The position numbers and the translations under genes are program-made. This document shows positions 28,087 to 34,761 of a stretch of 64,000 nt of DNA, one piece after another. The notes under the pieces were generated by a model. That model was not told the origin of the DNA, made no database searches, and was given only the letters and a program-made list of their open reading frames with translations. Each line of letters starts with the position of its first letter. Within the stretch, counting starts at the first letter, position 1. Source of the stretch: Promethearchaeota archaeon. GTDB lineage: Archaea; Asgardarchaeota; Lokiarchaeia; Sigyniarchaeales; SOKP01. The stretch covers positions 8,130 through 72,129 of the forward strand of contig JBHLNS010000013.1 in NCBI GenBank assembly GCA_048941285.1, in the 5' to 3' direction.

Positions 28087-29511
28087 TTAAATTAATTTCC
28101 AATTAGGCCCATCCGGAGTGTCTTCAAGCTGAATTCCCGCTCTTCTCAATTTTTCTCTAATTTCATCACTTAGTTTATAATTTTTTGCTTTCCTGGCTTT
28201 ATCACGGATATCTATTATAATAGCCATTAATTCACTTAATGTTACATCAGTAGCTGCTTCTCGTTTATTGAAATCAAGCCCAAAAACAGTTAAAAGCTCA
28301 AGCAGCGTTTTTTTTGCCGAATTAAGAATTTCGGATTTGTTGTCTAAAGAGCTATTAATTTTTTTTATAAACTCGTAGATTGTAGCAAGAGCTTTAGGAT
28401 TATTGAAATCATCATCCATTGCGGAGTTAAAGTCTTTTTTTACATTTTCTATTGCTTCTATAAGATTATCTTCAACTCCACCAGATGAATTAGCTATTGC
28501 ATTTAAACAATTTTTTATTTTTTCAATATTATTTTTTGCATTCTCAATAACTTGGGGATTCCAATCCACTGCAGATCTATAATGTCCAGACACAAGCCCC
28601 ATTCTTACAATAAGTCCTCCATATTCATCAATTAACTCGCGGGCAGTAACATAGTTTCCAAGGCTTTTACTCATTTTTTTGCCATTTAAAGTAATAAATT
28701 CCGCATGCATCCAATAATTTACAAATTTTTTTCCTGTAGCGGCTTCAGATTGGGCAATTTCATTAGGATGATGAGTAGGAATATGATCAATACCGCCACC
28801 ATGAATATCCAGTGTTTCTCCTAAATATTTCATACCCATGACGGAACATTCAAGATGCCATCCAGGATAACCCTCCCCCCAAGGAGAATTCCATCGCATA
28901 ATATGGATTTGATCTCCTTTTTGGGCATTTAACCATAATGCGAAATCAAAATAATTCTTTTTTAATGGATCTTGAGCCACACGGGCTTGTGCTTTTTCTT
29001 CATCAAGCTTTAATCTTGCGAGTTTCCCATAATCTTCGAATTTCGTAGTATCATAATATACATTACCTTCTACTTCATAAGCATAACCTTTTTTTAGCAA
29101 AATTTTGATAATTTCAATCATATCGGGGATAACAGCCGTTGCTCTAGGAGATATATTAGGTCTTTGAATGTTTAAATCATCAATTACTTGCCAATATTCT
29201 TTAATTTGTTTATCGACTAGTTCCCAAGGATTTATTTTTTTTTCTCGTGCTCTTTTTTCAATTTTATCTTCTCCTTGATCTTCATCATCAGTTAAATGAC
29301 CTACATCAGTGAAGTTTTGAACATGGAATACGTTATAACCTTTGTATCTTAAGTATCTAATAACCACATCCCATGAACTATATGTCCTGGCATTTCCGAT
29401 ATGCACATCATCATATACAGTTTGCCCACATGTATAGATTCGAACTCGACCTTCCTCTATTGGTTTAAAAACCTCCTTTTGTCGAGTCATGGTGTTATAG
29501 ATTTTAAGCAT
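28087..29511 (-). CDS. cysS: Cysteinyl-tRNA synthetase
   Basis: CGQTVYD..HIGN, PGWHLECS, DIHGGG, KMSKS, AMDDDFN. Confidence 0.97.
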   Translation of the reverse strand: MLKIYNTMTRQKEVFKPIEEGRVRIYTCGQTVYDDVHIGNARTYSSWDVVIRYLRYKGYNVFHVQNFTDVGHLTDDEDQGEDKIEKRAREKKINPWELVDKQIKEYWQVIDDLNIQRPNISPRATAVIPDMIEIIKILLKKGYAYEVEGNVYYDTTKFEDYGKLARLKLDEEKAQARVAQDPLKKNYFDFALWLNAQKGDQIHIMRWNSPWGEGYPGWHLECSVMGMKYLGETLDIHGGGIDHIPTHHPNEIAQSEAATGKKFVNYWMHAEFITLNGKKMSKSLGNYVTARELIDEYGGLIVRMGLVSGHYRSAVDWNPQVIENAKNNIEKIKNCLNAIANSSGGVEDNLIEAIENVKKDFNSAMDDDFNNPKALATIYEFIKKINSSLDNKSEILNSAKKTLLELLTVFGLDFNKREAATDVTLSELMAIIIDIRDKARKAKNYKLSDEIREKLRRAGIQLEDTPDGPNWKLI

Positions 29512-29588: not shown

Positions 29589-32453
29589 CTAAATTTTTAC
29601 TTCAATATATGCCTCAATGAGTTTATTATCGATTTTCAATATCTTCGGTTCTTTCTTACCTTCCATTTTTTGAATAATGCTATTAGCTTGAACCATCTTC
29701 TTGATATATTCTTCATGTTTCTCAACTGCTTCTGAAATAACTTTATCATTAATTTGTAAATATAAAGTGATTCGATTTTTCGTTGAGAGATTGAGTTGTT
29801 TTCTGTAATTATTCAAATGTCTGATTAGATTTCTTACGATACCTTCCGATCTTAATGACGGTGTAATTTTGGTATTTAAATCTACAATAAGTTCTGCATC
29901 ATCTCTTTTTTGAAGAGTTACCTTTTTAACATTTATAGCATCAGCTACAATTTTTAAATATTCATTTTCGAGGGTTACTCCTTGCAGTCTAACCTCACTT
30001 AAGACTTGTCTCACTGGAATTTTAGCGTTATCTCTTAATTCAAACGATCTTTTTACTATATCCCTTGTTAATTCCATGTTTCTAATAGCTTCATTATCAA
30101 TTAATTCTGTATCATATTCCGGCCAAAACTCTAAATGAACCGATTCTAAACTAACAATTCCTCTTTCGCTCAATTTCTGATATATCATCTCAGAAATAAA
30201 TGGAGTTAAAGGAGCTAAAAGTTTTGCTAAATTTTTTAATACATACGACAACGTATTCACTGCTGCTGATTTTTCATTAATCTCTGCACTTTTAAATCGA
30301 TTTCTGCTGTTTTTAATATACCATGTGGAGAGATCTTCAATAAAATTGAAAATTAATCTACTGAACTCTGCTGTGTCATAATCATCCATTAGTTGCGTAC
30401 CTTCTTTTATTAGCCTATTTAATAAACTAACAATCCATCGATCTAAGATATTATCTGAATATATTTTATCTGCATTAAACTTATCAATATTAGCCATTGA
30501 GTAAAACTTTAGAACATTAATCATCAATAAATTGAATCTTCTGTAGATTTGTTTCACTAATTCCTCTTTAAAGCTTAAATCTTGTGCCCTCATTAGTTGA
30601 GATGACATAAGATAAATCCTTAAAGCGTCAGCTCCATATTTTTCTATGATTAGATTTGGATCTGGATAATTTTTTTTGGATTTTGACATTTTAGTTCCGT
30701 CTTCGCCAAGTAAATTACCATTTACGACAACATTTTTAAAAGGAATATTATCAAATAGCAGAATTGATATTACATGCATATAGTAAAACCATGCTCTTAC
30801 CTGACCAATATACTCTGACACAAAATCACTCGGAAAATTTTTTTCAAACCAGTCAATATTTTCAAAAGGGTAATGTTTTGCAGCATACGGCATTGAACCC
30901 GATTCCAACCAACAGTCAAATACCTCTGATATACGATTCATAATTTTACTGCAACTTGAACATCTAAGATGTATTTTATCAACTATGTGTCTGTGTAAAT
31001 CCAGATCATCTTCAACTTCTTCTATTGCATTATCTTGTAATTCTTTCACTGATCCAATTACTTTTATTTCATTACATTCCTCACATTCCCATACGGGCAT
31101 TGCTGTCGCCCAAAACCGATTTCTTGAAATACACCAATCAGGAGCTGTTTCTATTATCTTTTGATATCTATAAGAAATTTCTTTAGGATACCAGTTTATA
31201 ATTTTATTGGTTTTTAGGAGTTTTGGTTTTATTTTTTGAATGTTTATAAACCAAGCATCAAGAGCATTATAAATTAAGGGTGTATTACATCTATAACAGA
31301 AAGGATATGAATGTGTGTAATCTTCTGATTCGTATATAAGATTCCGACGATGTAGATCAACCAAGACTTCTTCATCTAAATCTTTAAACCATAATCCAAT
31401 CCATTCTTTAGGGCCATCAGTCAATTTGCCATGCTCATCAATATGTTGAATTACTGGAAGATCATACTTATTTATCATATCATAATCATATTCACCATAA
31501 AGTGCAATATGTATTATTCCTGTTCCTTCATCAGATAAGACTTCATCACCACCATCTATAACAATATGGCCTTTTTTGTCGCTTTTAGTAGAAATATAGT
31601 ATAAAGGTTTATACCTTTTATTTAATAACGCTTTTCCTTTAAATTCTTTAATTATTTCATATTCCTCATTGATGATTTCTAATTTATTTTTTATTAAGAT
31701 TAAATATTCACCATCAACTTCTATTTTAACATATGGTTGATTACTATTTACAGCTAGAGCTACATTTCCGATTAAAGTCCAAGGAGTTGTAGTCCATGCT
31801 AAAAGAAATGTCTTTGGTTCTTCTTTTAATTCAAATTTTGCTGTAATAGATTGTTCAGTAACTTCCCTATAACTATTATCCATAGAAATTTCAAAATTAG
31901 AAAGCGGGGTTTCACACCTTGGACAATAAAACAATACTTTTTTACCTTTATAGACAAAACCCTCCATATAAATCTTCTTAAAAATATACCACACAGTTTC
32001 CATATACGTATTATCCATAGTTTTGTATGAATTATCAAATTCTATCCACTTACCCATTCGTTCAACAGTTTTTTTCCACTCATTAGCATACCAAAGTACT
32101 TTTGATCGACAAAATTCGTTAAATTCTTCTACACCCATCTGATAAATTTCATTCTTCTGCTTTATATTTAAAGCTTTTTCACAAACACTTTCTATAGGAA
32201 GCCCATGACAATCCCAACCCCATTTCCTCTCACAACGTTGCCCTTTCATTGTCCAATATCTTGGGAATACATCCTTTGTTACAATACTTAATATATTACC
32301 ATGTTGAGGTAATCCAGTGGCAAATGGAGGCCCGTCATAAAATATATAAGGAATACCTTTAGGTCTATGCTCCACACTTTTTTCAAATATTTTGCTATCC
32401 TTCCAAAATTTTATTAGTTCTATTTCCTTTTCAATATATGATATTTTAAACAC
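29589..32453 (-). CDS. ileS: Isoleucyl-tRNA synthetase (type 2 / eukaryote-like)
   Basis: FYDGPPFATGLP, GWDCHGLP, AWTTTPWTL, DWCISRNRFW, DCWLESGSMP, KMSKS; GTG start after AGGATAG. Confidence 0.95.
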   Translation of the reverse strand: MFKISYIEKEIELIKFWKDSKIFEKSVEHRPKGIPYIFYDGPPFATGLPQHGNILSIVTKDVFPRYWTMKGQRCERKWGWDCHGLPIESVCEKALNIKQKNEIYQMGVEEFNEFCRSKVLWYANEWKKTVERMGKWIEFDNSYKTMDNTYMETVWYIFKKIYMEGFVYKGKKVLFYCPRCETPLSNFEISMDNSYREVTEQSITAKFELKEEPKTFLLAWTTTPWTLIGNVALAVNSNQPYVKIEVDGEYLILIKNKLEIINEEYEIIKEFKGKALLNKRYKPLYYISTKSDKKGHIVIDGGDEVLSDEGTGIIHIALYGEYDYDMINKYDLPVIQHIDEHGKLTDGPKEWIGLWFKDLDEEVLVDLHRRNLIYESEDYTHSYPFCYRCNTPLIYNALDAWFINIQKIKPKLLKTNKIINWYPKEISYRYQKIIETAPDWCISRNRFWATAMPVWECEECNEIKVIGSVKELQDNAIEEVEDDLDLHRHIVDKIHLRCSSCSKIMNRISEVFDCWLESGSMPYAAKHYPFENIDWFEKNFPSDFVSEYIGQVRAWFYYMHVISILLFDNIPFKNVVVNGNLLGEDGTKMSKSKKNYPDPNLIIEKYGADALRIYLMSSQLMRAQDLSFKEELVKQIYRRFNLLMINVLKFYSMANIDKFNADKIYSDNILDRWIVSLLNRLIKEGTQLMDDYDTAEFSRLIFNFIEDLSTWYIKNSRNRFKSAEINEKSAAVNTLSYVLKNLAKLLAPLTPFISEMIYQKLSERGIVSLESVHLEFWPEYDTELIDNEAIRNMELTRDIVKRSFELRDNAKIPVRQVLSEVRLQGVTLENEYLKIVADAINVKKVTLQKRDDAELIVDLNTKITPSLRSEGIVRNLIRHLNNYRKQLNLSTKNRITLYLQINDKVISEAVEKHEEYIKKMVQANSIIQKMEGKKEPKILKIDNKLIEAYIEVKI

Positions 32454-32720
32454 CTATCCTACTTATTTTCTCTAATCTCAATCTTTTTAACTTAAAAATA
32501 TTAAAAAATAATTTAATTAACATAATTTAGTTTATATCATAAATGTCGAGAGCTTTATTCATGAAGCAGGATGTGGAGGTAAAAGCTAAGAAAATTCACT
32601 TCACAAATAAATGAATTTAGATAATAATAATCGTGGATATGATCATAATCATATTTTTCACAAAACCTAAGAATTTACTAACAATATTCATAGCATCCAC
32701 ATCCACTTTATATTTTAAAT
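32451..32720 (-). promoter_or_regulatory. Putative ileS leader/attenuator region
   Basis: Ile-rich uORF; hairpin after its stop codon; segment complementary to both the ileS RBS/start and the leader 5' region; TTTAAAAT box at 32712-32719. Confidence 0.65.
32617..32691 (-). CDS. Ile-rich leader peptide upstream of ileS (24 aa)
   Basis: ATG AAT ATT GTT AGT AAA TTC TTA GGT TTT GTG AAA AAT ATG ATT ATG ATC ATA TCC ACG ATT ATT ATT ATC TAA = MNIVSKFLGFVKNMIMIISTIIII*. Confidence 0.72.
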   Translation of the reverse strand: MNIVSKFLGFVKNMIMIISTIIII

Positions 32721-32772
32721 AAGGTAAAATACTCTAAAAAATATTACGGTATTTTATCATTTTTTTTAAACT

Positions 32773-34761
32773 TTAATCCAAAAATATATAGTGATGAGCA
32801 ATTTTTCTTTTGTCTCTTCCAGCAAGAATATGAATATGTTTAATAGCTTTAAGAGAGTCTTTGCTAAAATTGTCGATTGAAATATAAACAAGTTCTCGAT
32901 TTTTGATTCCAGCAAGTGAATAAAAATATTTGCGAGGGGGTTCTTTTGCAATATAAGCTACATATCGTTCTTTGGAATAAATAATAGCAGCTTTAAGCAA
33001 GCGTTCTGCTTTATTCTTTGTATCTTTATACTCATAGTCCAAATATGGGTCAAAAAGGGATCTGAGAAAAATCGCTGGAAAAATCGAAAGTAATCCTCCA
33101 ACTTCTACATGGGTAATCCCTGGACCAATGATAAAATCTCCCGGATTTGTTGAATAGAATGCCATATCGCTCTCTCTATCATGTTCTGCCCACCAAGTTA
33201 ATTTATATGGAAAATATTCTTTTTCTCCATCGTCTTTATCAAATATAACTACAATTGTGTCGATTTTACCTTGAACTTGTTGAATGTTTTGCACGTAAAT
33301 CTTCTTTTTAAAAGCCCAATTTCTAATAGTTTCTTTAATTGCAATTCCGTCCATTAAGCTGGATTTGAATTCCTCTATTTTAATTCTCTGATTTTTCAAA
33401 TTTTTAATTGTTTTTTTTCTTATAAAAGCAAAATAATCCTCTTCTAAAGCATCCTCAGGAGGCCACGAAACAGTATATTCTTTACCTTCTTCCCATCTAT
33501 CTCTCCATTCCCCGGGATATTTTTCTTCAGGTTTTTTCTTTAAAGGCAATTCTCTCTCTTTTCCATAGTTATAAGGAAGATGTCTTCTTAATTTTATATA
33601 TCGACCACTAGGATCATACCCACCTTCCAATGACATCTTCAGAGTTTCATAATTATCACTTTCATCATTATATGGATATTTTGTAGCTTTATCCAATACT
33701 TTCCACGCATAATCATCGTCAACTATATTTTTTGATGCGATTAATAATTGAAATAAATTTGGTAGTAATCTCTGTTCCGTTAATGAAAGATTCCTTGAAT
33801 ATTGAAATAATGTTTTTAATTTATGGAGATCCACAAATTCTTTAAATTCTTCCTCAAAATCATATTTAGCTTTGATCAAAATTTTTCTAATATGCTCAAT
33901 TTTATCAAACCGGTTAAATATTTTATAAAGTTCTTCGAGAGAATCAACCCTTTCTAATCTTTCTTTAGAAAATTCTTCTTTAAATTTCAACCACCTATAG
34001 GTATGATATGGTAATTCTCTCAAAAGATACCTAGCGTCACCACTTCTTATGTTATAAATCTTTACGTATTTATGAGGAATTAAATCTAATTCTACTTCTT
34101 GAACCTGCTCTGGGTTTTCTAAGTAATATTTTACGTTTTCCCAATGAGCCATACCAATAATAAGTAAAATTCTATGGTATATAGGCATCATTTTTAATAG
34201 ATGAGCTGCCATATATTTTTCTCTAAGAATATCTTTTTGAATATAATCATACTCTTTATCATCTTTTAACTGGTTTTTAAGAAAATCTTTTAAGATTACT
34301 TCTTTGTTGGGAATATCTTTTCTATTCTTAGATTTCTTTATAAAATAATCAGATATTTGATGATAAAACTCTTGAAGACCGATTTGATTAATAGCATAAT
34401 CATCTGGAAGTTTGAAACTTGGAGGTAAATACTCTGAGATGGAAAGATCAATAAATTCGATCGGAATATTATAATCAACACCAATCTTTATTGCTTCCAT
34501 AACTGAATCACCCGGATCTATTGGAATAAAATTTAATTTTTCTGGATTTAAGCTATCAGCATATCCAATTAAAGATAGAAAAGGTAATCTCTGGACAGCT
34601 TCAATCACTTCTTCTTGTATATTATTAGGTAATTCAACAGCGATTACATCCGGAAATACTTTAAATAATGCTATACGGACTAATTTAGCAAACTCTATTC
34701 GCGAATGGAATGTGGGAATGACATAGATATTTCTAAATTTAATATAGGGATTCTCATCCAT
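32773..34761 (-). CDS. Conserved protein with TraB/GumN/ChaN-like N-terminal domain, MoxR-associated
   Basis: H..FA..VR..PDVIAVELP, RE.YMA, IIGMAHW motifs; 1 bp from the AAA gene. Confidence 0.65.
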   Translation of the reverse strand: MDENPYIKFRNIYVIPTFHSRIEFAKLVRIALFKVFPDVIAVELPNNIQEEVIEAVQRLPFLSLIGYADSLNPEKLNFIPIDPGDSVMEAIKIGVDYNIPIEFIDLSISEYLPPSFKLPDDYAINQIGLQEFYHQISDYFIKKSKNRKDIPNKEVILKDFLKNQLKDDKEYDYIQKDILREKYMAAHLLKMMPIYHRILLIIGMAHWENVKYYLENPEQVQEVELDLIPHKYVKIYNIRSGDARYLLRELPYHTYRWLKFKEEFSKERLERVDSLEELYKIFNRFDKIEHIRKILIKAKYDFEEEFKEFVDLHKLKTLFQYSRNLSLTEQRLLPNLFQLLIASKNIVDDDYAWKVLDKATKYPYNDESDNYETLKMSLEGGYDPSGRYIKLRRHLPYNYGKERELPLKKKPEEKYPGEWRDRWEEGKEYTVSWPPEDALEEDYFAFIRKKTIKNLKNQRIKIEEFKSSLMDGIAIKETIRNWAFKKKIYVQNIQQVQGKIDTIVVIFDKDDGEKEYFPYKLTWWAEHDRESDMAFYSTNPGDFIIGPGITHVEVGGLLSIFPAIFLRSLFDPYLDYEYKDTKNKAERLLKAAIIYSKERYVAYIAKEPPRKYFYSLAGIKNRELVYISIDNFSKDSLKAIKHIHILAGRDKRKIAHHYIFLD

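Follow-up and report, generated by a model that had tools for sequence, protein, structure and literature searches.

The window analysed here, a 64,000-nt stretch of contig JBHLNS010000013.1 from a Promethearchaeota archaeon (assembly GCA_048941285.1), carries on its - strand an additional isoleucyl-tRNA synthetase gene, ileS2 (29589-32453; TIGR00392, 810 bits, cut-off 621), and a 319-nt spacer separates this open reading frame (ORF) from a 662-aa gene (32773-34761) with a weak TraB-family match. The ileS2 product has 954 aa when counted from a GUG codon and 951 aa when counted from an AUA codon. Because the genome has another full ileS on contig C10 (6041-8926; TIGR00392, 810 bits; open frame of 1048 aa), the gene in the window was named ileS2; the two synthetases share 32% identity. 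Within the spacer lie a short frame that ends in a run of isoleucine codons and a set of competing RNA pairings, and we propose, with a probability of roughly 0.55, that the spacer is a cis-acting leader that gauges charged tRNA-Ile by way of the translating ribosome. All features of the window described below are on the - strand.

Conservation of the leader upstream of ileS2

The first 300 residues of the ileS2 product were searched against 400 Asgard genomes, and matches of at least 72% identity in open frames of about 950-970 aa were taken as orthologues. These were present in 39 of the 400 genomes (the window genome counted), namely 30 of the 54 genomes of the window's genus and 9 of the 42 of a second genus, g12; the remaining 80 matches were 40-47% identical and belonged to longer proteins, of about 1060 aa. 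Upstream DNA was collected for each of the 39 orthologues and, with one metagenome contig (L142), made up a sample of 40 leaders, cited below by L numbers, from which two alignments were built: A1 with 22 leaders and A2 with all 40. The leader was present upstream of ileS2 in 39/39 genomes (40/40 with L142), and it was kept across two upstream-gene contexts, including loci at which the upstream gene is a different, divergent one. A pattern scan of metagenomes matched 119 stretches, and among the 80 examined a single one, L142, was a true leader, so the pattern was too loose.

A short upstream frame ends in an invariant isoleucine run

The small upstream ORF (uORF) of the window (32617-32691) has 24 codons, reads MNIVSKFLGFVKNMIMIISTIIII-stop, begins with an ATG at 32691 and ends with a stop codon at 32619-32617. 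Directly before the stop it carries the isoleucine run AUU AUU AUU AUC (32631-32620). A frame of 20-25 codons was found in 40/40 leaders, starting with ATG in 39 and with GTG in one. Nine letters of it, ATTATTATT (AUU three times), are invariant in every leader, synonymous sites included. The predicted peptide has a variable N-terminal half and ends in (I/T/A/P)-S-x-I-I-I, after which zero to two codons precede the stop; the synonymous site of the Ser codon, which falls in an element named E2 below, is likewise fixed. A short frame with codons cognate to the regulated gene, as expected of a leader-peptide attenuator, was therefore seen in all 40 leaders.

The uORF is preceded by a Shine-Dalgarno (SD)-like element, E1 (GUGGAUGUGGA, 32696-32706, which includes GGAUGUGGA at 32704-32696), whose core is invariant in 40/40 leaders. 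E1 is G-rich at -13 to -6 from the frame ATG, the interval in which the genes of this genome are G-enriched (20-26% vs. 11% in the background), and its predicted duplex with the 3' tail of the genome's 16S rRNA (3' end GGAUCACCUCCU) amounts to -8.2 kcal/mol, the first percentile of the background being -8.3 kcal/mol. Judged by this sequence signature, the genome uses SD-type signals.

Three conserved helices in the leader

The original prediction, an earlier note made from the letters of the window, had described mutually exclusive pairings able to hide or free the ileS2 start site, and all of its elements were located on the - strand where it had placed them. In one pairing, AUCCUGCUU (32572-32564) forms 9 bp, one of them G.U, with AAGUAGGAU (32456-32464), the arm on the side of the ribosome-binding site (RBS); this is referred to below as the anti-RBS helix. 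In the second, UCCACAUCC (32577-32569) forms 9 bp with GGAUGUGGA, all Watson-Crick and five of them G-C. A search of the 344-nt leader for helices 9 bp or longer, with no more than one G.U and with three or more G-C pairs, returned exactly these two. Under the same settings, 300 mononucleotide shuffles gave a mean of 0.063 helices and in no case two (0/300), and a perfect 9-bp helix with at least five G-C pairs appeared in 1/300. In the minimum-energy fold of the window sequence (RNAfold), the anti-RBS helix is formed and the second helix appears in a shifted register. As the coordinates are right, the shuffles lack two such helices and the minimum-energy fold shows them, the observation is real for the window sequence.

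Conservation separated these pairings. The second one, which we call R2, was paired in 99.2% of cells over the 40 leaders, with compensatory changes from G-C to A-U in L223 and from A-U to U-A in L218, single changes that were wobble-compatible only (L209, L215, L219), and defects limited to a U.U mismatch inside the helix (L214) and the loss of two terminal pairs. RNAalifold together with explicit counting revealed two further helices that the original prediction had not listed. P1 joins E1 (32706-32697) to E2 (UCAUAUCCAC, 32642-32633), which covers codons 17-20 of the uORF and lies 1-10 nt 5' of the isoleucine run; 95.9% of its cells were paired, and three of its pairs carry double changes (U-A to C-G in six leaders, G-C to A-U in three, plus one). 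P3 joins E3 (UUUAUUUGUGAAG, 32611-32599) to the 3' part of a composite element, E4 (32554-32577); 90.9% of its cells were paired, and 6 of its 13 pairs carry double changes, among them G-C to A-U in each of the seven typical leaders of g12 and U-A to C-G in six leaders. Controls in which the arms of P1, P3 and R2 were slid gave 24-57% of cells paired. RNAalifold recovered P1 and P3 in each of four subgroups.

E4 consists of E4a, which is UCCACAUCC (32577-32569) and forms the 3' arm of R2, a UG, and E4b (CUUCAUGAAUAAA, 32566-32554), which forms the 3' arm of P3; the "anti-RBS" arm AUCCUGCUU falls inside it. Nine of the 16 columns of the E4 core are invariant in 40/40 leaders and five others are at least 90% conserved. 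In L223 both E2 and E4a carry the change that matches a single G-to-A substitution in E1, and changes on one side alone keep wobble pairs, as expected of pairing at the RNA level.

Two minor elements of the original prediction fared less well. The hairpin AAAUUCA (32618-32612)/UGAAUUU (32598-32592) is present, starts within the stop codon of the uORF and has the 5' arm of P3 as its loop; spanning 32592-32618, it is weak, made of A-U pairs only, and moderately conserved (82-83% of cells paired; 82.1% in the 40 leaders). The bracket AGCUUU (32587-32582)/AAAGCU (32556-32551) is also present in the window, but with 55.3% of cells paired it was rejected as a conserved part of the leader. A further candidate from RNAalifold, P0, in which an ACC box (32753-32748) pairs with the ileS2 SD, fell from 93.6% of cells paired in 22 leaders to 77.5% in all 40, and g12 has another sequence in place of the box; this helix was set aside, and the adjoining A/T-rich block was taken as a promoter element instead. 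Over P0, P1 and P3, double changes were counted at eleven pairs (two, three and six, respectively).

Ribosome position plausibly sets the fold

P1 and R2 are mutually exclusive because both use arm E1. R2 and P3 cross each other, so that they are either exclusive as well or parts of an H-type pseudoknot, which with linkers of 21 and 2 nt is sterically possible. In constrained folding of the E1-E4 segment of the 40 leaders, the R2 state was lower in 30 and the P1+P3 state in 10. The mean gap was 3.0 kcal/mol, which makes the two states near-isoenergetic, and in 31/40 leaders the energy of one or the other equalled the unconstrained minimum.

We then imitated a stalled ribosome by blocking 12 nt on each side of the isoleucine run and computed folding ensembles for 22 leaders. 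In the unmasked ensembles, E1 paired mainly with E2 in 8/22 leaders and with E4 in 12/22; with the mask in place, its main partner was E4 (UCCACAUCC) in 19/22. These models suggest that ribosome position plausibly sets the fold. Of the arrangements by which attenuators are recognized, the leader has exclusive helices of which one arm would lie under the stalled ribosome, as in leader-peptide attenuation, and a competing helix (R2) that would capture the anti-RBS upon stalling, as in translational attenuation.

The ileS2 start probably lies 9 nt downstream of the GUG

The start region of ileS2 (32442-32454) comprises GGUG at 32454-32451, a 6-nt spacer and AUA at 32444-32442. The original prediction had placed the start at the GUG (32453-32451), an assignment that now looks doubtful. 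In the column aligned to the AUA, the 40 leaders have ATG in 18, ATT in 16, ATA in three, TTG in one and other codons in two, and GGUG stands 6 nt 5' of this column in 20 of the first 22 leaders. L207 and L210, otherwise of the window's leader type, have ATG there. In two leaders, L051 and L060, an in-frame TAA comes immediately after the GTG; in a third, L054, an ATG-GTG-TAA stands ahead of the ATG. For the predicted anti-SD duplex, the stretch 5' of AUA 32444 gives -8.8 kcal/mol and that 5' of GUG 32453 gives -3.7 kcal/mol. In favour of a GUG start, this codon is still open in frame in 17 of the 19 leaders with ATT or ATA. Given the start column, the GTG-TAA arrangements in relatives and the duplex energies, the GUG is probably the core of the SD, GGUG, and the homologous start of ileS2 probably lies 9 nt downstream, at what is here a near-cognate AUA.

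A 25-codon ORF that begins at ATG 32523 and ends with UAA at 32448-32446, 1 nt before the AUA, was considered as a termination-reinitiation device and rejected: it occurs in the window only and is not kept in the other 39 leaders. The ORFs that stop close to the ileS2 start in 13 other leaders are unrelated ones, 1-31 codons long.

Promoter elements and the 5' end of the leader

Two A/T-rich, TATA-like blocks lie upstream of the uORF. Block 0 (AATATTTTTTAGA, 32733-32745) adjoins a conserved ACC (32750-32748), has nearly invariant columns in the 40 leaders and is our candidate for the leader promoter; Block 1 (TTATTTAAAATATAAA, 32707-32722) is conserved in both A1 and A2. In archaea the TATA box is centred about 26 nt upstream of the transcription start. 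With Block 0 as the TATA box, transcription would start near 32712, some 8-10 nt upstream of E1. With Block 1 as the TATA box, the start would fall near the ATG at 32691 and leave E1 out of the transcript. The 5' arm, and hence the whole scheme of competing helices, requires a start upstream of 32706. That E1 may be transcribed is favoured by its SD-like position, its predicted pairing with 16S rRNA, the co-changes with its partners and the presence of Block 0; Block 1 speaks against it.

A proposed route from the leader to ileS2

Together, the invariant isoleucine run and the competing helices are consistent with the following course of events. When Ile-tRNA is plentiful, the ribosome would clear the frame, E1 would re-pair with the nearby E2 to form P1, P3 would form, and E4a would be left exposed in the loop of P3. 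Under a shortage of Ile-tRNA, the ribosome would stall on the AUU run with its footprint over E2, and E1 would pair with E4a to form R2. E4a resembles the anti-SD tail of 16S rRNA, and our guess is that, where it is not captured by E1, E4a and its 3' neighbour would base-pair with the region of the ileS2 SD. In the window this pairing would be the 9-bp anti-RBS helix; in about ten relatives it would be a related pairing of 5+5 bp (ACAUC-C-UGCUU with AAGUA-A-GGUGU) that covers the GGUG. Stalling would then free the start of ileS2. Other lineages could couple the switch to the gene by read-through at T tracts or by factor-dependent termination. We prefer a translational output because oligo-T termination in archaea is not known to be governed by RNA structure, and because the SD of ileS2 is strong.

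Several observations weigh against this reading, and most of them concern its output. The predicted duplex between the conserved element and the start region reaches -15.4 kcal/mol in the window; compared with composition shuffles, it shows no excess, with a mean z of -0.2 in 22 leaders and of -0.19 in 40, 4/40 lying below -1.5. Between masked and unmasked folding, the main partner of the ileS2 SD was unchanged in most of the 22 leaders, and no conserved or consensus structure was found between E4 and the SD in any subgroup. The conserved helix sequestering the SD or start that defines translational attenuation was accordingly absent from the alignments. A conserved link from the switch to ileS2 was not found in this sample, so that this is the weak step of the proposal and the output is lineage-specific at best. 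Because the 40 leaders stem from two genera, their compensatory changes also amount to few independent events. Finally, full-text searches of openly accessible literature on leader-peptide or uORF control returned bacterial or eukaryotic cases only, and no archaeal precedent of leader-peptide control was found. Further points against the proposal, which concern the T tracts, the covariation of E1 and the position of the promoter, are taken up with the alternatives to which they belong.

Alternative explanations

The output might be transcriptional, which we consider unlikely. Here, read-through of two T tracts, T6 (32508-32503) and T5 (32498-32494), or escape from a CPSF-type archaeal termination factor would carry transcription into ileS2; termination would be prevented by a ribosome stalled beside the stop codon or by the R2 fold. 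Oligo-T is an archaeal intrinsic termination signal, and 33/40 leaders have a run of five or more T between E4 and the SD, at 32-55 nt from the latter. The isoleucine run stands within two codons of the stop in every leader, which recalls the stall at the stop of tnaC. Yet T runs of this length also turn up in 69% of background windows whose G+C is below 0.20, and in only 1/7 g12 leaders, so that the T tracts are not above background and a T-tract terminator was rejected as a universal output. Nor does any helix end at them: the hairpin directly before a U tract that is typical of leader-peptide attenuators is missing, P3 being followed by A-rich sequence with the T tracts about 45 nt further on, and hairpins are not known to be needed for termination in archaea. 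The tracts (32494-32508) may equally be a TATA-like box of a promoter proximal to ileS2.

The switch as literally described in the original prediction, in which AUCCUGCUU masks the RBS and a GUG start, GGAUGUGGA acts as the anti-anti-RBS and ribosome position decides between them, seems more doubtful still. Both of its helices exceed chance in the window and feature in the minimum-energy fold, and R2 is conserved; the 5+5-bp pairing over the SD recurs in close relatives of one sub-lineage only, within which the idea of SD masking may hold. The masking helix itself, however, was paired in 44.8% of cells in the 22 leaders, no better than the 26-45% obtained when it was shifted by 1-3 columns; it has a central C.A mismatch in the nearest relative already, L061, and no compensatory changes in A1. 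With no excess of the duplex over shuffles in either set of leaders, a GUG that is probably part of the SD, and the conserved partners P1 and P3 left out, what stands of the original switch is the principle of competing helices and its anti-anti arm, R2, whereas the comparison lends no support to the RBS-masking helix or the GUG start. The claim is best corrected to one in which P1, R2 and P3 are the conserved competitors and the start probably lies 9 nt downstream.

Control might also act on the DNA, which we regard as improbable. The motif GTGGATGTGGA and its two inverted copies (one in the frame, one at 32577-32569) would then be operators of a single DNA-binding protein, placed around a promoter with Block 1 as its TATA box, and the frame would be leaderless or incidental. 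Indeed, Block 1 is suitably spaced for a start near ATG 32691, in which case the uORF would be leaderless and E1 would lie outside the RNA, and the co-variation of E1, E2 and E4a, including the joint change of all three copies in L223, would fit three DNA sites of one protein too; both points count against the leader as a tRNA gauge. What speaks against operators is that differences between the copies are almost exclusively of the kind that preserves G.U pairing, that the copies have a fixed polarity, and that P3 covaries independently without such a motif; the AUU run and the SD-like E1 would moreover be left unexplained. That the frame encodes a functional hydrophobic micropeptide, or is conserved as a by-product of A/T-rich sequence with no regulatory tie to ileS2, is very improbable: although the peptide is hydrophobic and Ile codons are common at the genome's G+C content of 29.7%, the N-terminal half varies freely, the synonymous sites of the isoleucine run and of the E2 Ser codon are fixed, the linkage to ileS2 holds in 39/39 genomes and the helices covary.

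Synthetase features and gene context

Close relatives of ileS2 (74-89% identity) all come from metagenome-assembled genomes of Asgard archaea, namely Promethearchaeota, Hermodarchaeota or Hodarchaeota. The nearest named relatives of this IleRS2 of about 950 aa outside the Asgard archaea are in DPANN archaea (Micrarchaeia, Woesearchaeota), at 56-57% identity, which hints at exchange of the gene between the DPANN and Asgard lineages. The HIGH motif of the window protein reads QHGN (32290-32310; residues ~48-54) and its KMSKS motif is intact. Among the orthologues the HIGH motif is HYGH, HYGN or QHGN and thus drifts inside one orthologue group. In bacterial IleRS2, a swap of this motif to G/AXHH is reported to be linked to mupirocin hyper-resistance (PMC10485003); the variants seen here differ from that swap.

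Downstream of ileS2, across a 77-nt gap on the - strand, lies cysS (28087-29511; TIGR00435, 510 bits). The CysS KMSKS peptide is also encoded 3' of ileS2 in L006, L009, L012 and L013, and for this reason the two genes may form an operon.

A search for sister leaders before leuA or cimA found no HMGL-family (leuA/cimA) gene in the 94% complete genome, and three matches to thiamine diphosphate (ThDP)-dependent enzymes of the acetolactate-synthase-like type all fell under the ilvB cut-off. Given the lack of an HMGL-family gene at this completeness, the organism may not make branched-chain amino acids itself and may rely on an external supply.

The 400 genomes were also scanned for a 16-letter conserved element of the leader. 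Most matches with one mismatch were not leaders and were set aside as coding copies on the opposite strand of a widespread gene, which may be a methyltransferase; copies of this kind, with zero or one mismatch, lie at L047, L048, L055, L059, L066, L068, L070-L078, L080 and L082. These coding copies encode an E-A-G-C-G-type motif, a coincidence that misleads pattern searches.

Relation to known systems

One close counterpart of the proposed leader is the pheST attenuator of Escherichia coli, in which a Phe-rich leader peptide, PheM, is combined with competing helices, one of them a hairpin-plus-U intrinsic terminator. Both have a short frame rich in the cognate codons of the synthetase and competing helices, and both would sense tRNA charging by stalling. 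The Asgard leader, by contrast, belongs to an archaeon, has no helix that adjoins a U tract, and has as its switching arm an SD-like element that precedes the frame. The tnaC-tnaA system of E. coli is similar in that the stall lies at most one or two codons from the leader stop and a long untranslated spacer precedes the gene; that system requires Rho and responds to free tryptophan in the exit tunnel, whereas nothing in the Asgard leader gives evidence of such a factor. The T-box leaders of bacterial ileS follow the same logic, more IleRS when tRNA-Ile is uncharged, and achieve it by binding the tRNA directly, with no need of a ribosome. A cmscan search of 31500-33500 (E <=10) detected neither a T-box nor any other Rfam family; it gave only four weak, unrelated matches.

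In translational attenuation of the ermC/cat type (PMC5118997, PMC5499644), a ribosome stalled on the leader is reported to remodel the pairing and to free the next start, which is the logic of the original prediction. There, the stall is drug- and peptide-dependent and the conserved RBS-masking helix is defining, whereas the leader upstream of ileS2 has a codon run and an unconserved masking helix. Leaderless short ORFs with poly-cysteine runs in mycobacteria are reported to be amino-acid-responsive attenuators of downstream genes (bioRxiv 10.1101/834739). They share with the uORF the run of codons for one amino acid, a likeness that would gain relevance if the uORF were leaderless; they differ in being bacterial, in sensing Cys and in controlling biosynthetic operons.

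Implications for Asgard archaea

A more specific version of the proposal, which we hold tentatively and below even odds, is that the leader is a ribosome-based gauge of the Asgard archaea's own. The SD of the tiny isoleucine-run frame would be the moving arm of a three-helix switch, possibly with a pseudoknot. When charging of tRNA-Ile fails, this switch would activate a spare, DPANN-like IleRS whose HIGH motif is often altered and whose start is often a near-cognate AUU or AUA. In this tentative version, such a failure would arise, for example, if the main IleRS were poisoned by a natural inhibitor, an idea we hold no more firmly.

In bacteria, the sensing of tRNA charging through a leader peptide is a textbook case of regulation. 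If our interpretation is true, leader-peptide control would exist in the archaeal lineage nearest to the eukaryotes, and the coupling of ribosome position to RNA folding would serve regulation in Asgard archaea. The second IleRS would thereby acquire a conditional role, and the leader would offer a small, concrete RNA on which transcription-translation coupling in archaea could be tested.

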